A DNA stretch of 64,000 bases from Sedimentisphaerales bacterium (GCA_963663965.2 CAXXFK010000033.1:128001-192000), one strand, 5' to 3'. Shown: positions 52,868-61,158, numbered from the stretch's first letter. Made by a program: numbers and translations. The notes: generated from the sequence alone by a model not told the origin.

Positions 52868-53992
52868 ATGAATCCCCATGAAGTCGTATCCCTGAATATT
52901 AAACGAATCAGAATCAGTCGCGGGATATCCCAGACTGGCCTGGCTAAGTCCGCTAACATTTCTCGTCAAGCATTTATTGATATTGAAAGTGGGAAGACCA
53001 AAGAGCCCAGGGTTAGTAATCTTCAGTCAATCGCCGATGCACTGGAGGTTCCCATTGTAGCATTGTTTGAAGAACCTCTCCAGCTTACTACCGTTCGTTT
53101 TCGAAGCAATTCAATAAAGACCCAAAAAGAGAAAGCCAAAAAACAACAATACTTAATCGATGCTGCTTACTGGCTTAAGAATTTTAACTACCTGCAATCT
53201 GTCGTTTCAGACAAGAAAGAAGCTAAGCTCCAAGAGGTCTTTCAAAATGCAGATAAACTGAAAACCGATCGTCCAAGAAAAGCTGCTGAATTGACCAGGT
53301 CGTCACTAGGATTAAAAGAAGATGAACCCATTGGAGATATTATAGGTTTAGTTGAAAGTGCGAGTATCAAAATTAAAACCCAAGCGTTTGACCTGAAGAA
53401 TTTCTTTGGCTTTTCTATTTCTGAGTCGGATGGCGGCCCTGCTATCGTGGTAAATAATAGTTCCAAAATATCCATCGAAAGACAAATATTTACTGTGGCT
53501 CACGAACTTGGCCATCTGATTCTGCATCCCAAGGCATATGATCCAATAAAGAATGATGAGCCAGACCAGGAAGAAAAAGAAGCAGATATCTTCGCAGGGT
53601 ATTTCTTGATGCCGGCTGAGGCTTTCAAGAAGAAATTCAATGAATCGTATGGGCTTGGATTTGTTGATAGAGTATTACATATCAAACGTTTTTTTTGTGT
53701 AAGTTATCAGGCAGTCTTACATCGATTGTCTGACATGGGACTTGGCGACTACGGAAAACTCTCGGCCAAGTTTCATGCAATCTATAAATGTCAATATGGG
53801 GAAAGCCTGACCTTACATAAAGAGCCTTTCCCCCTGGTTAAACCTGACTTTGTAGAAGATTATCTTATGTCACTTGTCAGGAAAGCTTTAGATAAGACAG
53901 AGATTACTGTCAGTCGAGCTGCTGAGATTTTAAATGTGTCGCTCATGGATATGAGAGAAATAATCAATTCATGGGCGGAAATAGCAGCATGA
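52868..53992 (+). CDS. XRE-family HTH fused to ImmA/IrrE (DUF955) Zn metallopeptidase
   Basis: RISRGISQTGLA..ISRQAFIDIESGK HTH; RQIFTVAHELGHL, EKEADIFAGYFLMP. Confidence 0.92.
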   Translation: MNPHEVVSLNIKRIRISRGISQTGLAKSANISRQAFIDIESGKTKEPRVSNLQSIADALEVPIVALFEEPLQLTTVRFRSNSIKTQKEKAKKQQYLIDAAYWLKNFNYLQSVVSDKKEAKLQEVFQNADKLKTDRPRKAAELTRSSLGLKEDEPIGDIIGLVESASIKIKTQAFDLKNFFGFSISESDGGPAIVVNNSSKISIERQIFTVAHELGHLILHPKAYDPIKNDEPDQEEKEADIFAGYFLMPAEAFKKKFNESYGLGFVDRVLHIKRFFCVSYQAVLHRLSDMGLGDYGKLSAKFHAIYKCQYGESLTLHKEPFPLVKPDFVEDYLMSLVRKALDKTEITVSRAAEILNVSLMDMREIINSWAEIAA

Positions 53993-54498
53993 CTAAAAAG
54001 CTTATCAAAGCAGGTATCATCTCAGATGCCAATGTTTTAATTGATTATGCCGAATCCGCCCCTGATATCTTAAGGCTCATTTGTGAACATATTCTACAGC
54101 TATATATTCCCTTGACTGTTCTAAAAGAAGTTAGTCAGTTGAACATTCAAGAGGTACAAGCATTAGGTATTGAAATAGTCGAACCCAAATTGTCTCAGAT
54201 CATCGAGGTTTCTAATATAAGAGAACTGAAACCTGCTCTTTCAGCACAAGATGCTATCTGTTTCATAATGGCAAGAGATAATGATTGGGCTTGCCTCACT
54301 AACGATAAACCTTTAAGGCGTTTATGCTCTTCTCAGAAGGTGTCTTGTATCTGGGGATTGGAAATCATGCATATTTTAGTTTCTTCAAAGGCCATCACCG
54401 CTAAGAAAGCGTATGAAATTGCCCAAGATATCCAGTCAAAGAATAAATATATTAAACTGCAAACACTCGAATTATTCAAAAAGAAAATTGGACTGTGA
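53989..54498 (+). CDS. PIN-like domain protein
   Basis: IISDANVLIDY, VLKEV, LSAQDAIC, LTNDKPLR; ATGA overlap with the XRE-ImmA gene. Confidence 0.82.
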   Translation: MTKKLIKAGIISDANVLIDYAESAPDILRLICEHILQLYIPLTVLKEVSQLNIQEVQALGIEIVEPKLSQIIEVSNIRELKPALSAQDAICFIMARDNDWACLTNDKPLRRLCSSQKVSCIWGLEIMHILVSSKAITAKKAYEIAQDIQSKNKYIKLQTLELFKKKIGL

Positions 54499-54633
54499 TT
54501 AATCATCCTTAGCTTGCAACAGTCCATTCAGTTCTTCGTCAGTTTTTTTCATGTTTTCATCGCTAACAAGTAATTTGATTTCAAGAAACATTGCTTTAAA
54601 ATTGCTTATACTTTGATTAATAAATTGCTTGAG

Positions 54634-54912
54634 ACATTTGTTAATAGTGGCTGGGATATGGTAAGCGGTATTGCGGGAGATGCTGAGGTGGATTGGCAGT
54701 TGGTGCGGCCGGGGGAAGATTATCCGCGGCTGGTGTGGCAGATTCCGATTGAGGGGGATCTGGCGGGATTGTGGGGTGTCGATGGGGCGGATATGATGGT
54801 ATTGGTAGAAGGATGGCTGACAACGGATGGCCGGCCCGGAGATCTAGATGCCAATGGTCAAATCGATCTGGCGGATTATGCCCGGTTATGTGAAAACTGG
54901 CTTCGGCAGTAA
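54634..54912 (+). pseudogene. C-terminal remnant of a secreted dockerin-like/EF-hand protein
   Basis: TFVNSGWD...DYPRLVWQ..GDLAG..GVD..D....WL...GDLDANGQIDLADYARLCENWL, with no signal peptide or credible start; abrupt AT-rich to GC-rich switch at about 54640. Confidence 0.7.
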
Positions 54913-55032: not shown

Positions 55033-55064
55033 AAAAAAGCCGGATACCTTGCGTTACCCGGCTT
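55033..55064 (-). terminator. Rho-independent terminator after PEP-CTERM variant C
   Basis: On the minus strand: AAGCCGGGTAAC-GCAA-GGTATCCGGCTT followed by a T-run. Confidence 0.8.
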
Positions 55065-55092
55065 GAATTCTTTGTGTTAGTGACGATCACAA

Positions 55093-55704
55093 TCACCGTT
55101 GGCGTTTAATGGCCAGAGCGCCGAAGCCCAGTAAGAGCAGGCTGGTTGGTTCGGGCACTTCCACAATCTTAATATTTTGCCAGACCGGATCGTAACCGCG
55201 GTCGGTTTTATCGATGAACTGGATGGAAAAAGCCGAATCATCCGCCCACAGACCGGCGATGCCCTTAATGGCGCTCTGATTGTCATAGATCCAGTTCCAA
55301 CCGGGCTGACATTCAATCGTGATATGCGGCGTACCTTCAACCAGTTGCATACAACGAATCATATTGATCTGACCGCCTTTAAAGATTGCTGTAGAATTAT
55401 GACTAGTCGACAACAAATCTAAAGCGCCACCCAAAAACAACAATGAACTGTCATGTGATAAAGAAATATCAAGAATCCCATGATTATTATCAACGGGTTG
55501 AGAAGTGGACCAAACCTCTAATCGTCCATAGTCTATTTCAATGGTATCCCCCCCCCCCCCATCGACAATCAAAGGGGGGTCGTAACCAGACCACCTGACA
55601 CCATATTCATATTCGCCGGCGGTAATATAGCCATCCAGATAGCCAGCATTACTCGTTGTTACAAACAAACAGATCCCCAACAGAATCAACCATAATCTTT
55701 TCAT
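55093..55704 (-). CDS. PEP-CTERM surface protein, variant C (G13 tract, in frame)
   Basis: Signal peptide; VPEPTSLLLLGFGALAIKRQR sorting signal. Confidence 0.92.
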   Translation of the reverse strand: MKRLWLILLGICLFVTTSNAGYLDGYITAGEYEYGVRWSGYDPPLIVDGGGGDTIEIDYGRLEVWSTSQPVDNNHGILDISLSHDSSLLFLGGALDLLSTSHNSTAIFKGGQINMIRCMQLVEGTPHITIECQPGWNWIYDNQSAIKGIAGLWADDSAFSIQFIDKTDRGYDPVWQNIKIVEVPEPTSLLLLGFGALAIKRQR

Positions 55705-56379
55705 AATCCGGTTCTCCTTATGCTTTGTTTATCTGATTGTATCAAATCACGGGGCTTCATGTCAAGATGGGACTGCAACACCTCGCGTATGTCCGATAAA
55801 ATCGATCGCAGGAATTCCAAACCCTCAATTAATGCCTCGGCGTTATCAGGTTCGTTTTCTAATTCCGCTTCGATATAATCCATAATTTCAGAGGCGTTGA
55901 TAGCCAGCCGGGCCAGTTCAGCGCGGGACAGATCGACATAGGGATTAACCGGGACATACGCATCGGCTTCGGCGATCAGAATGGTTGACAACGTTTCGAA
56001 CATGGGGACAGTCATGGCCATCATCTCACCGCCGCTTGCCATAGCACTATAATAAGCCAGATAGTTTTCGCGCCAGCAGGCCTGCCACAGCCATTCATCA
56101 CAAAAGGCCGCCAAATCGGCCGTATCGATGGCATACTGACTGACGCCAGTCGCATCCAGATTGCAGACCGATTTCCAGATAGCCGCGGCATTTGGATTAA
56201 CCAGATTCGGATCGGCCTGCCAGGCTGGATCGTTGGGATCGTGCCCCAGCCAGGCCGCCGAAAGGCCGTTGAATTCGTATAGATTGATCACACCGTCAAC
56301 GTTCCAGTCCAGGTCGTTGAAGATATCATCCTCGGAGATATCATCATCGAAGGAATAAATCTCATCGGCCCCGATATCA
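55701..56379 (-). repeat. Orphan 3' fragment (679 bp) of the large secreted-protein gene, frame still open
   Basis: Colinear with 58132-58810, from DIGADE to the stop codon; many substitutions, no indel or stop. Confidence 0.92.
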
Positions 56380-56406
56380 CGCATGATACTTAGCCGCTCT
56401 TCGCAC

Positions 56407-56448
56407 AAAAAGAGGAAACCTCCGAATAGATAACCATCCGGAGGTTTT
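56407..56448 (-). terminator. Terminator hairpin after variant B
   Basis: On the minus strand: AAACCTCCGGAT-N8-ATTCGGAGGTTT, then a T-rich tail. Confidence 0.8.
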
Positions 56449-56467
56449 GATGTGCGAGGTATTTACC

Positions 56468-57087
56468 TTAACAGGTCCGCCGTTTTAACCAGAATCCACC
56501 CAGGGCTAATAAACTCAAAGTGGTTGGTTCGGGCACTTCCACAATCTTAATATTTTTCCAGACCGGATCGAAGCCCAGTTCCGTTATATCTATAAACTGG
56601 ATCGAAAAAGCCGAATCGTCGACCCACTGACCGGCAATACCTTTAATCGCATTTTGATTATTATAGATCCAGTTCCAACCCGGCTGACATTCGACGGTGA
56701 TATGTGGTACTCCTTCGACCAACTGAAAACAACGGATCATATTGATCTGGCCACCTTTAAAAACAGCAGTTGAATTATGATTCATAGATAACACATCAAG
56801 TGCACCATCGTAAAACACCAGGGAACTGTTGTGCCATAAATCCAAATCGGAAATACCGGAGTAATGCTGATTCAGAGGCAATGAGGTGGACAGGACTTCA
56901 ATGCGACCATTATCAATTTCAATTAAATTCCCCCCCCCCCCCCATTAACAATCAGGGGCGGATCATAACTGGACCATCTGACATCAAATTCATATTCCCC
57001 AGCCGTAATAAAACCATCCAGATAACTGGCATAAACCGAAGGTTCAAACAAACAGACACCCAACAGAATTAACCAAAATCTTTTCAT
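56468..57087 (-). pseudogene. PEP-CTERM surface protein, variant B, frameshifted at a G14 tract
   Basis: MKRFWLILLGVCLFEPSVYASYLDGFITAGEYEFDVRWSSYDPPLIVN, then G14 (56930-56943) leads to TAA. G12 or G15 restores the frame through to VPEPTTLSLLALGGFWLKRRTC. Confidence 0.88.
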
Positions 57088-57435
57088 AATCCGGTTCTCC
57101 TTAAACTTTGTTCATCCGATTGTATCAAATCGCGGGGCTTCATGTCAAGATGGGACTGTAACACCTCGCGTATGTCCGATAAAATCGATCGCAGGAATTC
57201 CAAACCCTCAATTAACGCCTCGGCGTTATCGGATTCGTTTGCTAATTCCGCTTCGATATAGCCCATGATTTCAGAGGCATTGATAGCCAGCCGGGCCAAT
57301 TCGGCACGGGATAATTCGGCATAGGGATTGACCGGGACATACGCATCGGCTTCAGAGATCAGGCTGGTTGACAGCGTTTCGAACATGGGGACGGTCATGG
57401 CCATCATCTCGCCGCCGCCTGCCAAAGAACTATAA
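57084..57435 (-). repeat. Orphan 3' fragment (~350 bp) of the large secreted-protein gene, frame still open
   Basis: Colinear with about 58132-58483 and with 55701-56052. Confidence 0.92.
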
Positions 57436-57452
57436 TTAGCCGCTCTTCGCAC

Positions 57453-57495
57453 AAAAAAGGAAAAACCTCCGGATAGATAACCATCCGGAGGTTTT
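57453..57495 (-). terminator. Terminator hairpin after variant A
   Basis: Perfect 13-bp stem AAAACCTCCGGAT/ATCCGGAGGTTTT, then TCCTTTTTT. Confidence 0.85.
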
Positions 57496-57514
57496 GAGGT
57501 GTGATGTATTTACC

Positions 57515-58135
57515 TTAACAGGGCCGCCGTTTTAACCAGAATCCACCCAGGGCTAATAAACTCAAAGTGGTTGGTTCGGGCACTTCCACTACATTCACAT
57601 TCATCCAGACCGGGTCGAAGCCAAAGATATCGACTTTGTCGATGAACTGGATGGAAAAGGCTGTATCATCCGCCCACAGACCGGCGATGCCCTTAATGGC
57701 GCTCTGATTGTCATAGATCCAGTTCCAGCCGGGCTGACATTCAATCGTGATGTGCGGCGTGCCCTCGACCAACTGAAAACAACGAATCATATTAATCTGA
57801 CCGCCCTTAAAAACAGCAGTGGAATTATGATTCGTAGATAGCACATCAAGGGCGCCATGATAAAACACCAGGGAACTGTTGTGCCATAAATCCAAATCGG
57901 AAATACCGGAGTAATGCTGATTCAGGGGCAATGAGGTAGATAGGACTTCAATGCGACCGTAGTCAACAGTAATGCTATTCCCCCCCCCCCCATCCACAAT
58001 CAAGGGCGGATCATAATCAGTCCATATTACGGTGTTTTCATATTCTCCAGTGGTAATATAACCATCCAGATAGCCGGCATTACTCGTTGTTACAAATAAA
58101 CAAACACCCAATAGAATTAACCATAATCTTTTCAT
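57515..58135 (-). CDS. PEP-CTERM surface protein, variant A (G12 tract, in frame), coupled to the large gene
   Basis: Signal peptide; VPEPTTLSLLALGGFWLKRR; ATGA overlap with the upstream stop. Confidence 0.93.
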   Translation of the reverse strand: MKRLWLILLGVCLFVTTSNAGYLDGYITTGEYENTVIWTDYDPPLIVDGGGGNSITVDYGRIEVLSTSLPLNQHYSGISDLDLWHNSSLVFYHGALDVLSTNHNSTAVFKGGQINMIRCFQLVEGTPHITIECQPGWNWIYDNQSAIKGIAGLWADDTAFSIQFIDKVDIFGFDPVWMNVNVVEVPEPTTLSLLALGGFWLKRRPC

Positions 58136-61100
58136 AATTCAGTTCTCCTTAAACTTTGCTCACTCGATTGTATCAAATCGCGAGGCTTCATGTCAAGATG
58201 GGACTGCAATACCTCGCGAATGTCCGATAAAATCGATTGCAGGAATTCCAAACCCTCAATTAACGCCTCGGCATTATCGGGTTCATTCTCTAATTCCGCT
58301 TCGATATAACCTATGATTTCAGAGGCATTGATAGCCAGCCGGGCCAATTCGGCACGGGATAATTCGGCATAGGGATTGACCGGGACATACGCATCGGCTT
58401 CAGAGATCAGGCTGGTTGATAATGTTTCGAACATGGGGACGGTCATGGCCACCATCTCGCCGCCGCCTGCCATAGCGCTGGAATAGGCCAGGTAATTCTC
58501 GCGCCAGCAGGCCTGCCACAGCCATTCATCACAGAACGCCGCCAAATCGGGTATATCAATAGCATACTGACTGGCGCCGGTCGCGTCCAGGTTACAGGCC
58601 GATTTCCATATGTCCGCAGCGTTTGGATTAACCAGGTTCGGGTCGGCCTGCCAGGCTGGATCGTTGGGATCGTGCCCCAGCCAGGCGGCGGATAAACCAT
58701 TGAATTCGTAGAGATTGATCACGCCGTCAACGTTCCAGTCCAGGTCGTTAAACAGATCATCCTCGGAGATATCATCATCGCAGGAATAAATCTCATCGGC
58801 CCCGATATCAATCCGGAGATCCAAAACCCGTTCCTCGTTATCCATATCAGCCTGATCGTCATAATTCAGGTATGGATTGCCCAGATCTTTACAGATGGAG
58901 TTATACGCCAGGTGGTAGTTCTCCGTATTGGGCGTGCCATTGGGATCGACGGTATAGGCAAAGCCGGGTTCCAGGCTGATATTCGTGCTGTTGACACTGT
59001 TGCAATCCTGAATACAGCAATAATGGGCGACCAGATCAGCATTCAAACCGGCTAACTGATTGCCGCCGCTGTTGTTATAGTAAATAATGCAGTTTTGAAT
59101 ATCCGGATAATCCAACTGATTGGGATCGTCGGCTATATTTCCATCATCGCTGAAAAAGATACCTGCCGACTTGTTATTGGAGATCGTGTTATTATAGATA
59201 ACCGGTGAATAAGTTGGATTAAAGATACTGATCCCTTGACGGCCTTCATTAGCCAGGTCGCTCTCAGAAATGATACTATTTTTAATCATTGGCGTTGAAC
59301 CATCGCAATAAATTCCATAACGCTGACTTCTCAAAATCCAGCAATTTTCTACTGTTAGGGCATAGTTCTCACCTACATGGTGAATTCCATCATAACCGTT
59401 GTTTTGAATTTTGCACCACTTAACAGCAACATCGCCATTGGAAGCATAAATTCCGTACGAGCTACTATTCTGAATCACACATTTATTAACCACAAAATCC
59501 ACACCCTCGCCATAAATACCATATTGTAAAGCCTTTGTAATCGTAAATCCCTCCAGCAGGGTCGTTTCGTCAATGGGGGAGTTGGGATCGGCCGAGACTT
59601 CATTGAGCATGGTCACGATGGTATCGCAATCGGGCGGCAGGTCATCATCCAGTTGCCCGGTCAGGATCGTCTCGTACCGCCGGGGATCGCGCTGCTCGAA
59701 CGCGCAGCCGCCGGTGGGGAACCCGCCATAAACCGAAATGCCTTCGGGCAGTTCAAAGCTGTCTTCGGCCCTATTACCCGGCAGGTAGGTTCCCTGCGCC
59801 ACATAGATGACATACGGTTCGGTACAAATCGCGTGGGCGGCCCGGTAAAGGGCCTTTTGCAATCCATCCGGTCCGTGATAGGCATCGGCCCAACTGGTCC
59901 CCGCATCCAGACCTGTCGCGTACCGGTCCACATAGATCTCCGTCGGCGTCTCGCCAAAACAGCAGACCTGCGTTTCGGCAACCGTCAGAGCTATTGCGCC
60001 GTCACGATCATCGATAACACCCCAGAGTTCAACCTGGTTGAGCAGAGTCAATCCCGAATCGGCCAGGGTGTTCACCACCACCTCCAACTGGACAGAACCG
60101 CTGTCGTTGGGATACATCGGCCCCAGTTCCCATAGATAAGTATGGGTATTGGGATCGTAGGCCGGATCGGCTTCGATAATATTCAAATTGGGATCCACGC
60201 TCGCGAAACCTTCCGGATAGGTCACTCCCCTGGGCAGAAAATCCAGCAGCCAGGCGTCATCCAGCGTCAGGCCGGTGGTATTGGTCCACTGGATGGTATA
60301 GGTGATGGTATCGCCCGGCTCGACACAATCGTTGGGATCGATATCGGTGGTCTTGACCAGGTCCATCTGAACCACCCCCCTGGGCGCGGCGATCGTCACG
60401 TTATGCTGGTCGTTATTCCCCAGTTCCCAGACTTCAAAATAATCGCCTGATATAGTAAATTTATTATGATAAGAATCATTCCATCCGGAAAGCGAGGTTG
60501 TTGTTATAGACTCGCCGGGCCGGTAGGGATCGTCATAAACTCCGCTGGCATAACCCGCTTCGGTGATCGAGGAGATCGAATTATTAATTGCACTAACTGA
60601 ACCAACACCCCAACTTGGGGGTAGCCAGTCAAAACAATTCATTTCATCTCCGCACACCAGCAAACCAGTCCCCACACCATCCAGAATATAGGCAATGGCC
60701 TGCCGCAACAGGATTCCGGCCGATCCGAGTTCCTGGACGGTATGAAGATCCAGATCATGACCGGTCAGAATAATCCGCCCGGTAATGCCCTCGGCAATGG
60801 CCGCAGGCAGGATGGGTTTGAAACCGAAAGAATGCCACCCGACAATGACGATGTCGTAGTCTGAGAAATCCACATTTTCCAAGGTATCCGGCGGCGATTT
60901 AACCGTGTATTGACTGGGGGCGATCCCCAATATGTTCATCGCCCCGATCAGGGCTGTCTCTTCACTTTCGACGATATAGAGTAAAAAGTGGTAGTCGCCG
61001 GGATTAAAACCCAGCAGGTTCGGATCGCAGGGCGCCAAATCTGGGATCACCAGCGGCAGACCGGCAGGATCGTTGCCGGCCAGAGCCGGGCCCTGCCAGG

Positions 61101-61158
61101 CGAATAAAATTCCGACACATCCGAGAAACCAGAAAACCATAGGCTTGATTCGTTGCAT
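58132..61158 (-). CDS. Large secreted acidic protein: DUF11-like Ig domain, right-handed beta-helix, DIGADE motif, dockerin-like/EF-hand module, helical tail
   Basis: Signal peptide; LVKT...VEPGDTITYTIQWTN...DFLPRGVTY; IYVAQGTY; repeated YGIY/NCII beta-helix rungs; DLDWNVDGVINLYEF...DLAAFCDEWLW; GAGGTG RBS. Confidence 0.88.
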   Translation of the reverse strand: MQRIKPMVFWFLGCVGILFAWQGPALAGNDPAGLPLVIPDLAPCDPNLLGFNPGDYHFLLYIVESEETALIGAMNILGIAPSQYTVKSPPDTLENVDFSDYDIVIVGWHSFGFKPILPAAIAEGITGRIILTGHDLDLHTVQELGSAGILLRQAIAYILDGVGTGLLVCGDEMNCFDWLPPSWGVGSVSAINNSISSITEAGYASGVYDDPYRPGESITTTSLSGWNDSYHNKFTISGDYFEVWELGNNDQHNVTIAAPRGVVQMDLVKTTDIDPNDCVEPGDTITYTIQWTNTTGLTLDDAWLLDFLPRGVTYPEGFASVDPNLNIIEADPAYDPNTHTYLWELGPMYPNDSGSVQLEVVVNTLADSGLTLLNQVELWGVIDDRDGAIALTVAETQVCCFGETPTEIYVDRYATGLDAGTSWADAYHGPDGLQKALYRAAHAICTEPYVIYVAQGTYLPGNRAEDSFELPEGISVYGGFPTGGCAFEQRDPRRYETILTGQLDDDLPPDCDTIVTMLNEVSADPNSPIDETTLLEGFTITKALQYGIYGEGVDFVVNKCVIQNSSSYGIYASNGDVAVKWCKIQNNGYDGIHHVGENYALTVENCWILRSQRYGIYCDGSTPMIKNSIISESDLANEGRQGISIFNPTYSPVIYNNTISNNKSAGIFFSDDGNIADDPNQLDYPDIQNCIIYYNNSGGNQLAGLNADLVAHYCCIQDCNSVNSTNISLEPGFAYTVDPNGTPNTENYHLAYNSICKDLGNPYLNYDDQADMDNEERVLDLRIDIGADEIYSCDDDISEDDLFNDLDWNVDGVINLYEFNGLSAAWLGHDPNDPAWQADPNLVNPNAADIWKSACNLDATGASQYAIDIPDLAAFCDEWLWQACWRENYLAYSSAMAGGGEMVAMTVPMFETLSTSLISEADAYVPVNPYAELSRAELARLAINASEIIGYIEAELENEPDNAEALIEGLEFLQSILSDIREVLQSHLDMKPRDLIQSSEQSLRRTEL

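Follow-up and report, generated by a model that had tools for sequence, protein, structure and literature searches.

A 64,000-nucleotide (nt) stretch of DNA from a Sedimentisphaerales bacterium (GCA_963663965.2 CAXXFK010000033.1:128001-192000), here called the window, carries an array in which one large gene is followed by three genes for small PEP-CTERM proteins: PEP-A, PEP-B, and PEP-C. Both PEP-B and PEP-C are preceded by a partial copy of the large gene's 3' end, hereafter an arm. Positions are those of the whole window, and every element of the array lies on the minus strand. Where labels are needed, G000 denotes this genome, C33 the contig of the window, and C30 the contig that holds a second such array.

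The large gene (58132..61158) is an open reading frame (ORF) for a secreted protein of 1008 residues with a hydrophobic N-terminus. The protein contains a right-handed Beta_helix region (Pfam, 56.3 bits) and a DUF11 repeat (Pfam, 23.7 bits, slightly below the cut-off of 24.6; TIGR01451, 29.9 bits), and ends in a C-terminal module of ~230 residues. Its final ~22 codons overlie the predicted promoter and the ribosome-binding site (RBS) of PEP-A (57515..58135; 206 residues, in frame, or ON), whose ATG overlaps the TGA of the large gene. Behind PEP-A come T1, an intrinsic terminator with a 15-bp stem and a U run (57462..57495; free energy, dG, -24.4 kcal/mol; z -6.87); the 17-nt linker GTGCGAAGAGCGGCTAA (57436..57452); and arm 1 (57084..57435). 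This arm copies the final 345 nt of the large gene (residues 894-1008, 92% amino acid identity) in an open frame, and contains a predicted promoter, P-B, and an RBS.

The next gene, PEP-B (56468..57087), is out of frame (OFF) through a frameshift at a tract of G residues, which splits its ORF into segments of 54 residues (56923-57087) and 137 residues (56468-56881) in different frames. It is followed by the intrinsic terminator T2, of the T1 type (56416..56447; 14 bp, dG -20.7 kcal/mol, z -5.71); by a second copy of the linker GTGCGAAGAGCGGCTAA (56390..56406); and by arm 2 (55701..56389), which copies the final 679 nt of the large gene (residues 775-1008, 89% amino acid identity), again in an open frame and again with a predicted promoter, P-C, and an RBS. 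Finally, PEP-C (55093..55704; 203 residues, ON) ends at T3 (55037..55064; dG -17.5 kcal/mol, z -4.48), an intrinsic terminator whose sequence is unlike T1 and T2 and is found elsewhere only in the last cassette of the C30 array. All three junctions have the ATGA overlap of start and stop codons together with an AAGGAG RBS (that of PEP-A at 58145-58150, 9 nt 5' of its ATG). From one start to the next, the units are spaced 1048 and 1383 nt apart, with the longer arm repeated at 2431 nt. An initial annotation of this DNA had described the same order of large gene, PEP genes, terminators, linker, and 3' fragments, which matches base for base on renewed reading; its overlaps, its RBS positions within the fragments, and its spacings agree as well.

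The order of the cassettes can be taken as probable from the assembly, from the occurrence of the same build twice in contigs of more than 300 kb, and from similar arrays in the near-complete genomes of relatives. For comparison, short Logan contigs from two sequencing runs of one sample (X1 and X2; k-mer depth ~2-6) were aligned with the window. Among the joints listed for them, none links the large gene directly to PEP-B or PEP-C (deletions of 1048 or 2431 nt), but rare forms are invisible in such contigs, so this is not evidence against them. Two joints that might have passed for rearrangements, 55179>57605 and 56189>56377, are explained by the paralogous C30 array, which matches the window.

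The second array (G000:C30:208114-211600, or L001:8114-11600) also has three cassettes, with the same build, the same junctions, and both terminator types. At its head, in place of an intact large gene, is a fragment beginning at residue 811; upstream of this lies an AT-rich stretch without a long ORF. The third arm carries a net deletion of 186 nt. The three PEP genes hold tracts of 13, 14, and 11 G, spaced 1.0-1.2 kb and located, in contig order, at C30:208851, 209893, and 211086; the middle gene is out of frame, and two of the three ORFs are intact. Mis-binning of C30 or C33 was considered and set aside: in GC content and tetranucleotide profile both contigs stay within the range of the remaining large contigs, and C30 has the sole MutS_I match of the genome, which is weak evidence that the two arrays share one genome.

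The tracts occupy the same codons in all three genes of the window, encoding LIV-D/N-GGGG, and appear as C runs on the plus strand. In PEP-A the tract (57980..57991) has 12 G in codons 49-52 and reads GGGG. That of PEP-C (55548..55560) has 13 G, the final one belonging to a GAT codon. That of PEP-B (56930..56943) has 14 G in the assembly, where 12 or 15 would keep the frame. Outside one block of artefactual poly-G, the genome contains nine G/C runs of at least 11 nt, six of which fall in this six-gene family, at the same codons. No run of that length falls in any of the genome's 48 remaining PEP-CTERM matches. The G run is uninterrupted, at 11-14 nt, in all six copies, though synonymous divergence (dS) in the adjacent codons is 0.6 to more than 2; GGG accounts for 17% of glycine codons in the long ORFs of the genome. 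Four of the six copies are in frame. The two OFF copies are both middle genes, shifted by +1 or +2 at the tract.

Two comparisons bear on how fast the tracts change. Over ~550 nt, PEP-C and the middle C30 gene are 100, 98.7, 99.5, and 98.3% identical in four consecutive segments, yet the former has 13 G and is in frame and the latter has 14 G and is not. The tract has therefore changed faster than the sequence around it. (The tail of PEP-C differs: its PEP-CTERM end is unlike that of the C30 gene.) In addition, the PEP-B tract has 13 G in a contig from run X1, and 14 G in a contig from run X2 and in the assembly; the X1 contig shows no other difference over 288 nt. To our knowledge, runs of 11-14 G slip at high rates in every bacterium studied.

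The ratio of nonsynonymous to synonymous divergence (dN/dS) of PEP-B against its paralogues is 0.06-0.30, with 0.06 against PEP-A in the middle region; PEP-B is thus not a decaying pseudogene. Indeed, both OFF copies remain under purifying selection. Diversifying selection on the bodies of the PEP genes was not seen (pairwise dN/dS, 0.05-0.41).

Several other homopolymers occur in the genome. Inside a 302-kb contig, ~900 nt of near-pure poly-G (G000:C29:83353-84268; runs of up to 115) are most likely a sequencing or assembly artefact. At G000:C7:11685-11696 (L039), a gene on the minus strand is divided by a 12-nt G/C run into two ORFs, of 359 and 268 residues, the former with a weak GH99-like match (29.6 bits; cut-off, 33); this may be another homopolymer-switched or broken gene. 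A 20-nt C run (G000:C11:196022-196041; L041) is intergenic, in AT-rich sequence; the gene downstream, ~220 nt away, has an FtsK 4TM domain. An 11-nt G run (G000:C35:52068-52078) lies near the 3' end of an ORF that appears formyltransferase-like by eye in six-frame translation.

Each PEP gene of the window has its own predicted promoter: P-A (58167..58196), inside the last ~60 nt of the large gene; P-B (57119..57148), in arm 1; and P-C (55736..55765), in arm 2. All read TTGACA-18-TACAAT with an extended -10 TG, match the consensus at 11 of 12 positions, and lie at the equivalent position of each arm, ~30 nt 5' of the ATG. A scan of the region for sigma-70-type promoters returned 15 sites, no excess over shuffled sequence, but only these three combine 11/12 with the TG. 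Genome-wide, 345 sites reach this quality in 14.5 million strand-bases, 51 of them with the TG. All six cassettes carry the start codon, the RBS, and the promoter hexamers; the hexamers are invariant, and the spacer between them varies at three positions.

In relatives, the large gene stops ~22 codons earlier, and a spacer of 60-100 nt takes the same place; the large ORF described here has therefore run on through the PEP promoter and RBS. In two of these genomes (G023 and G004) the spacer holds promoter-like TTGAAx-18-TGnTATAAT boxes. Among 19 PEP starts in relatives, 12 have a promoter-like site (at least 9/12) ending within ~50 nt of the ATG; two have their sole site ~55-60 nt upstream, and five have none at that threshold. 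The spacer between large gene and PEP gene can also fold into a hairpin (L018:5238-5300 in G019; L014:5347-5424 in G023; L016:6198-6270 in G004) of 12-14 bp, with dG of -20.6 to -29 and z of -3.9 to -6.1. Its loop of 6-8 nt carries the -10 box (TTGGTATAAT), and its stems differ in sequence between genera with pairing retained. The hairpin could be a combined terminator of the large gene and promoter of the PEP gene, or an operator.

The small proteins match the PEP-CTERM domain only. The four intact copies score 20.0 (PEP-A), 18.6, 20.0, and 21.4 bits against TIGR02595 (cut-off, 16), and all six copies exceed the PF07589 cut-off in a genome scan (23.7-31.9 bits). Searched alone against the Pfam PEP-CTERM family, PEP-A reaches 19.7 bits, under the cut-off of 20.7, and PEP-C 23.4 bits, over it. 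The genome contains at least 54 PEP-CTERM matches and two exosortase genes (PF09721, 177.1 and 167.1 bits; cut-off, 25.7). The hydrophobic PEP N-terminus, MKRLWLILLGVCLFVTTSNA followed by GY, has by eye an A-x-A-like site before the GY, and residues 3-17 form a helix in a model of PEP-A. This model, built from a 17-sequence alignment (predicted local distance difference test, pLDDT, 82.5; predicted template-modeling score, 0.74), shows a short beta-solenoid flanked by the putative signal helix and a C-terminal anchor helix. Foldseek returned no match to it at E of 0.001 or below (best E, 0.48). In a wide structural search the top neighbours were beta-helical adhesins and beta-rolls: the TibA adhesin (Z 11.4; root-mean-square deviation, 2.4; 122 residues), the CyaA RTX block (Z 11.2), and Ag43 (Ag43b; Z 8.9). 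On the strength of the model, this likeness is one of shared fold, not of function. Database searches with PEP-A found 19 related proteins, all unnamed or 'hypothetical', the closest outside this genome being 53% identical; a wider search for loci found one in genome contigs and one, without a tract, in metagenome contigs. No strain-level relative turned up whose cassette order could be compared.

Loops of the DxDxDG type occur in the large protein's C-terminal module. EF-hand matches are all sub-threshold in the protein of the window (best, 12.7 bits; cut-off, 25.4), and EF-hand_1 is matched by five of 12 aligned members, at E of 0.016 or worse. A model of the module is poor (pLDDT 49.7), the terminal helical hairpin excepted. 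Pairing of a dockerin in the large protein with a cohesin in the PEP protein was considered and dropped: the PEP model is a beta-solenoid, without cohesins among its listed structural neighbours, and neither dockerin nor EF-hand matches reached their thresholds. Scans with Pfam and TIGR models found no toxin or immunity family.

The arms are 88-94% identical in nucleotide sequence and 87-92% identical in amino acid sequence, and their history is one of recombination. In an alignment of all six units, each comprising arm, gene, and terminator, similarity forms a patchwork: units at the same position of the two arrays share junctions and tails, but gene bodies do not track position. In PEP-A, the first half of the body resembles PEP-B (83-95% identity per alignment window), and the second half is for the most part 100% identical to the third gene on C30. 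Arm segments change nearest neighbour every 60-150 nt. The 169 informative sites form 14196 pairs, 7182 of which fail the four-gamete test, and a neighbour-incompatibility score modelled on the pairwise homoplasy index (PHI) is 0.329, as against 0.505 +/- 0.008 when the order of sites is permuted (0 of 1000 permutations as low). The 3' end of the large gene itself is 100% identical to arm 1 in columns 60-150, and to the first C30 arm in columns 150-210. The expressed large gene and the fragments have therefore exchanged sequence, in one direction or the other.

The arms are also under constraint at the protein level. Over the final 345 nt, all 15 pairwise comparisons give dN/dS of 0.07-0.25 (dS, 0.19-0.50), pairs of fragments with the same truncation included. 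Arm 1 compared with the large gene gives dN/dS of 0.19; for arm 2 the value is 0.10 (dS, 0.54). When random substitutions were simulated in the numbers observed, a single fragment remained open with probability 0.03-0.31, and all five were open in 0 of 2000 runs. The 5' parts of the fragments, in turn, decay, with differing deletions. The last bases of the linker, GGCTAA, overlap the homology with GGCTTA in the large gene, and, judged by eye, the arm 1 junction appears to have arisen from the longer type of fragment by deletion at a microhomology. Altogether the arms look unlike neutral debris, and unlike separately translated genes, because they lack a conserved start and a signal peptide and their linker occurs in two reading frames. 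Like the orphans of Rhs and contact-dependent inhibition (CDI) loci, they look like displaced former 3' ends or conversion donors.

The pairing of a large gene with a PEP gene is conserved in the relatives, whose large proteins are 39-57% identical over 733-989 residues. Of eight such loci, four (L015, L016, L018, and L022) contain 3' fragments of the large gene. Over 135-226 aligned codons these fragments stay open, and their dN/dS is 0.18-0.33, also where dS exceeds 1. One of the fragments in G004 lacks both its ends and is not followed by a PEP gene, and still shows dN/dS of 0.21. In G019, the fragment at one locus is closer to the large gene of another locus than to its own (58% as against 46% amino acid identity). 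Four of five fragment starts, those of G000 and relatives taken together, lie within ~15 residues of GADE(I/V)YSC, a motif found where the C-terminal module begins. Viewed across four genomes, the 5' ends cluster within ~15-40 residues of that motif. Such clustering is puzzling, since large-gene homology extends ~500 residues further upstream. Relatives also have direct tandem arrays of PEP genes without fragments; in one of them (L014), all five genes have a promoter-like site within ~50 nt of the ATG.

Long G runs recur as well in the relatives, some of them from other genera. Five of their genomes contain 16 distinct G runs of at least 10 nt, four of which lie at the homologous tract site of the family. 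Two of the homologous tracts are out of frame (G019:805892, 13 G; G023:1262023, 11 G); a third lies in an intact ORF (G023:5489601, 10 G), and a run on contig C63 of G029 is in frame up to the contig limit. A second GGGG site in G023 has G8, out of frame, in one gene and G9, in frame, in another. Frameshifts exactly at tracts have thus been found in three genomes of two genera. A break of a different kind was noted in G004 (L016:4690-5440), where the middle of three PEP genes is interrupted by a single in-frame TGA in the conserved motif CQDGW*W, not by a tract frameshift. G023 also has an in-frame run of 12 G (L025; G023:C1:1797361-1797372) in an ORF that is prepilin-type or H-X9-DG-like by eye, a further candidate for a surface protein with a long tract.

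The reading that we favour, with moderate confidence, is that the array is a multigene family of beta-solenoid surface proteins that are phase-variable independently of one another and diversified by gene conversion, in the manner of Opa proteins and not of a single expression site. Its starting points are direct observations: the architecture, the tracts, the frameshifted PEP-B, the second array, the mosaicism, the purifying selection on PEP genes and arms alike, and the recurrence of the tract site, at times out of frame, in other genera. The steps that would join them are as follows. The promoters in the arms would fire, making each cassette a transcription unit that ends at its own terminator. 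Slipped-strand mispairing would alter the length of the G runs and so toggle each of the six genes ON or OFF independently; if such changes are frequent and reversible in the population, up to 2^6 surface states per genome could result. Gene conversion between cassettes, seeded in the conserved arm and promoter region on the left and in the conserved VPEP-motif region on the right, would reshuffle the variable beta-solenoid bodies. The PEP proteins would be exported; one or other of the exosortases would process them, and the cell would display them at its surface. There they might act as adhesin-like or aggregation factors, or be the targets of phages or grazers, which would supply the selective reason for bet-hedging. 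The arms are probably carried along as bearers of the PEP promoter and RBS, because both lie inside the large gene's 3' end; the ORF-like conservation of the arms suggests that they also exchange sequence with the expressed large gene.

This last feature admits an extension. It is possible, though we regard it as doubtful, that cassettes composed of a C-terminal module and a PEP gene are kept open by gene conversion with the expressed large gene, both inside an array and from one array or locus to another, and that the large protein and its PEP partner switch together as a matched pair. Such an Rhs-like reservoir without toxins, placed atop the poly-G switches, would amount to two-tier variation in a free-living Planctomycetota-like bacterium.

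Several points weigh against independent switching of the cassettes. The difference between 13 and 14 G in PEP-B comes from contigs whose k-mer depth is 5.4 and 2, so an error is conceivable. More generally, homopolymer lengths are error-prone both in a metagenome-assembled genome (MAG) and in the long-read genomes of the relatives, so some OFF states may be artefacts. MutS and MutL genes are present, so no repair defect would raise the rate of slippage. Members of the protein family that have no tract also conserve the GG(G) motif, and part of the tract conservation is therefore due to the protein. The promoters are consensus matches within coding sequence, and their conservation, too, could partly reflect the encoded protein. 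Finally, poly-G switching leaves the strong protein-level constraint on the arms unexplained.

What else might account for the array? The initial annotation had envisaged a single expression site: expression would be confined to the PEP gene that adjoins the large gene, and PEP-B or PEP-C would be activated by crossover or conversion into the first position. Much of what it built on has held up. The copies of the large gene's 3' end are genuine homology arms, 88-94% identical, the cassettes have recombined (a PHI-like score of 0.329, with 0 of 1000 permutations as low), and fragment-bearing arrays recur at four of eight loci when relatives are compared. Strong terminators between cassettes, arms held open at dN/dS of 0.07-0.25, and a large gene whose 3' end is 100% identical in stretches to two different fragments would all suit such a site. 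However, every cassette is complete, with its own near-consensus predicted promoter, RBS, ATG, and terminator. The C30 array lacks an intact large gene, yet two of its three PEP ORFs are intact and constrained, and the third is OFF because of its G run. Relatives have tandem PEP arrays without fragments (the five genes of L014, with their promoter-like sites), and the sole OFF gene of the present array is silenced by a tract frameshift, not by its position. Silence of PEP-B and PEP-C for want of the first position is accordingly very unlikely; the view of the cassettes as orphans keeps its recombining arms and open fragments, and loses its dependence on one expression site. The same open arms might instead be real genes, translated as stand-alone C-terminal-module partners or chaperones of the downstream PEP proteins, in which case the array would be a duplicated two-gene operon. 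All five fragments in the genome are open, as in 0 of 2000 neutral simulations; dN/dS is 0.07-0.25 even between fragments, and 0.18-0.33 in relatives at dS above 1; and the ATGA overlap would couple translation in all six cassettes. Against these stand a linker whose reading frame differs between the two types of fragment, so that the start is not conserved; the lack of a promoter-like site or RBS between terminator and fragment; the lack, by eye, of a signal peptide, where the parent protein is secreted; 5' parts that carry different deletions; and the G004 fragment, which at dN/dS of 0.21 and with no PEP gene after it better fits a displaced piece of a once-functional allele. We give translated fragments little credence.

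A plainer explanation is duplication debris: no switching would occur, GGGG would be a structural motif, and the OFF copies would be errors or ordinary pseudogenes. Homopolymers are a classic source of error, as the ~900-nt poly-G artefact on C29 illustrates; GG(G) is conserved in the family even where no tract exists; and depth in the sequencing runs is low. Such an account must nevertheless accommodate a run that stays intact in six of six copies beside saturated synonymous divergence and at a GGG share of 17%; an OFF copy under purifying selection; frameshifts located exactly at tracts in three genomes of two genera; the concentration of six of the genome's nine long tracts in one family; and the high slippage of runs of 11-14 G in bacteria. 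We consider debris unlikely. Lastly, control might reside in RNA and not in DNA, with polymerase slippage or ribosomal frameshifting at the G runs keeping the OFF copies partly expressed. Long homopolymers do provoke transcriptional slippage, and both OFF copies are under purifying selection. Yet near-identical copies differ in DNA length (13 as against 14 G), and recoding would add to slippage in DNA instead of replacing it; as the point of control it is highly improbable.

Proteins of the Neisseria Opa family are encoded by several paralogous genes with their own promoters, which are switched ON and OFF independently by slipped-strand mispairing and recombine between loci. The present array is similar in having multiple complete paralogous surface genes, each with its own (here predicted) promoter and a repeat in the 5' part of the ORF. 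However, the repeat is a mononucleotide one, of G, and lies ~27 codons past the start of the mature protein, whereas Opa genes have CTCTT pentamers in the leader; the products are exosortase-sorted beta-solenoids, arrayed with 3' copies of a neighbouring gene, whereas Opa proteins are beta-barrels; and the organism is environmental and Planctomycetota-like, with switching inferred, whereas the Opa host is a host-restricted pathogen. The poly-G/C contingency genes of Campylobacter jejuni, Haemophilus, and Helicobacter encode mostly glycosyltransferases, enzymes of capsule or lipooligosaccharide synthesis, and restriction systems. Intragenic tracts of at least 8 nt in surface-structure genes, frame-dependent ON and OFF states, and strong over-representation in one functional class are common to both; here, by contrast, the switched products would be the displayed proteins themselves, and mismatch-repair genes are present.

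In Rhs and CDI systems the variable part is the C-terminus of the main protein, and the orphans lack a start of their own. The window resembles Rhs, CDI (CdiA-CT), and MafB loci in its downstream 5'-truncated copies of a 3' end, each followed by a small partner gene, in open fragments that look like displaced 3' ends, and in exchange between arm and main gene and between loci. It differs in that no toxin or immunity domains were detected in it, that the arm is conserved and the variable payload is a separate, complete PEP gene, and that each orphan has its own predicted promoter, RBS, and ATG, and would not depend on the main gene. The pilE/pilS and vlsE systems have one promoter-bearing expression locus along with silent copies that lack promoters and starts. 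They share with the array a repeated family, conserved flanks, variable cores, and mosaics that indicate gene conversion, but every copy of the array is complete with its own signals. In mechanism, then, the nearest parallels would be the Opa family and the poly-G contingency genes, and in layout the Rhs/CDI orphan arrays. The self-associating autotransporter adhesins TibA and Ag43, the latter itself phase-variable, share with the PEP-A model a short right-handed beta-solenoid, which makes a surface adhesin-like role plausible; the PEP proteins have no autotransporter barrel, would be anchored through PEP-CTERM and exosortase, and are 10-14% identical to them in sequence.

Two reports describe partial counterparts. 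In the tandem lpl paralogue cluster of Staphylococcus aureus, the unit of duplication and recombination is not a single gene but takes in the 3' part of one ORF, the junction behind it, and the ORF that follows (PMC2568036). The recombining unit described here has the same span; the protein family is another, and the portion of that account available to us describes no repeat-tract switch. In phage-resistant Microcystis cells, a PEP-CTERM gene is preceded, at 199 bp, by an intergenic poly-C tract from which a C has been deleted (bioRxiv 10.64898/2026.07.12.738045). As far as the accessible part of that preprint goes, this case likewise links a change in homopolymer length to a PEP-CTERM gene, but its tract is intergenic, a single locus is concerned, and causality is not established there. 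It is the nearest case found: in the literature covered, which left subscription journals and preprint supplements outside the search, there was no description of intragenic repeat switching or of recombining arrays of PEP-CTERM genes. In the Akkermansia texts, seen in part, PEP-CTERM terms and phase-variation or homopolymer terms co-occur, unrelated to each other.

Repeat-tract phase variation in combination with recombining multigene families is a textbook feature of host-adapted pathogens. PEP-CTERM/exosortase substrates are very numerous in environmental bacteria, and hardly any of them is known to have a role other than floc formation in a few sludge bacteria (PMC9850573, PMC9012009). If the switching is real, this family would be a surface structure under fluctuating selection, from phages, from grazers, or through the choice of an attached or a free way of life; such genes could be recognized in MAGs by a simple genomic mark, a run of G at one fixed codon; and the relatives' near-complete genomes, among them G019 and G023 in 1-4 contigs, have the same loci and would offer a tractable entry point. 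For annotators, 'frameshifted' PEP-CTERM genes and 'fragments' of upstream genes in these lineages may be functional states, not decay.

Just past the array, on the plus strand (52868-54498), a gene with HTH_3 and Peptidase_M78 domains (ImmA/IrrE-like) overlaps a PIN-like gene (weak match); such pairs are typical of mobile or defence-related islands. Between this pair and the array, also on the plus strand (54613-54912), lies an ORF of 99 residues. It has no Pfam match, and its end, DxDxNGxIDLxD...W, resembles the calcium-loop motif of the large protein's C-terminal module.

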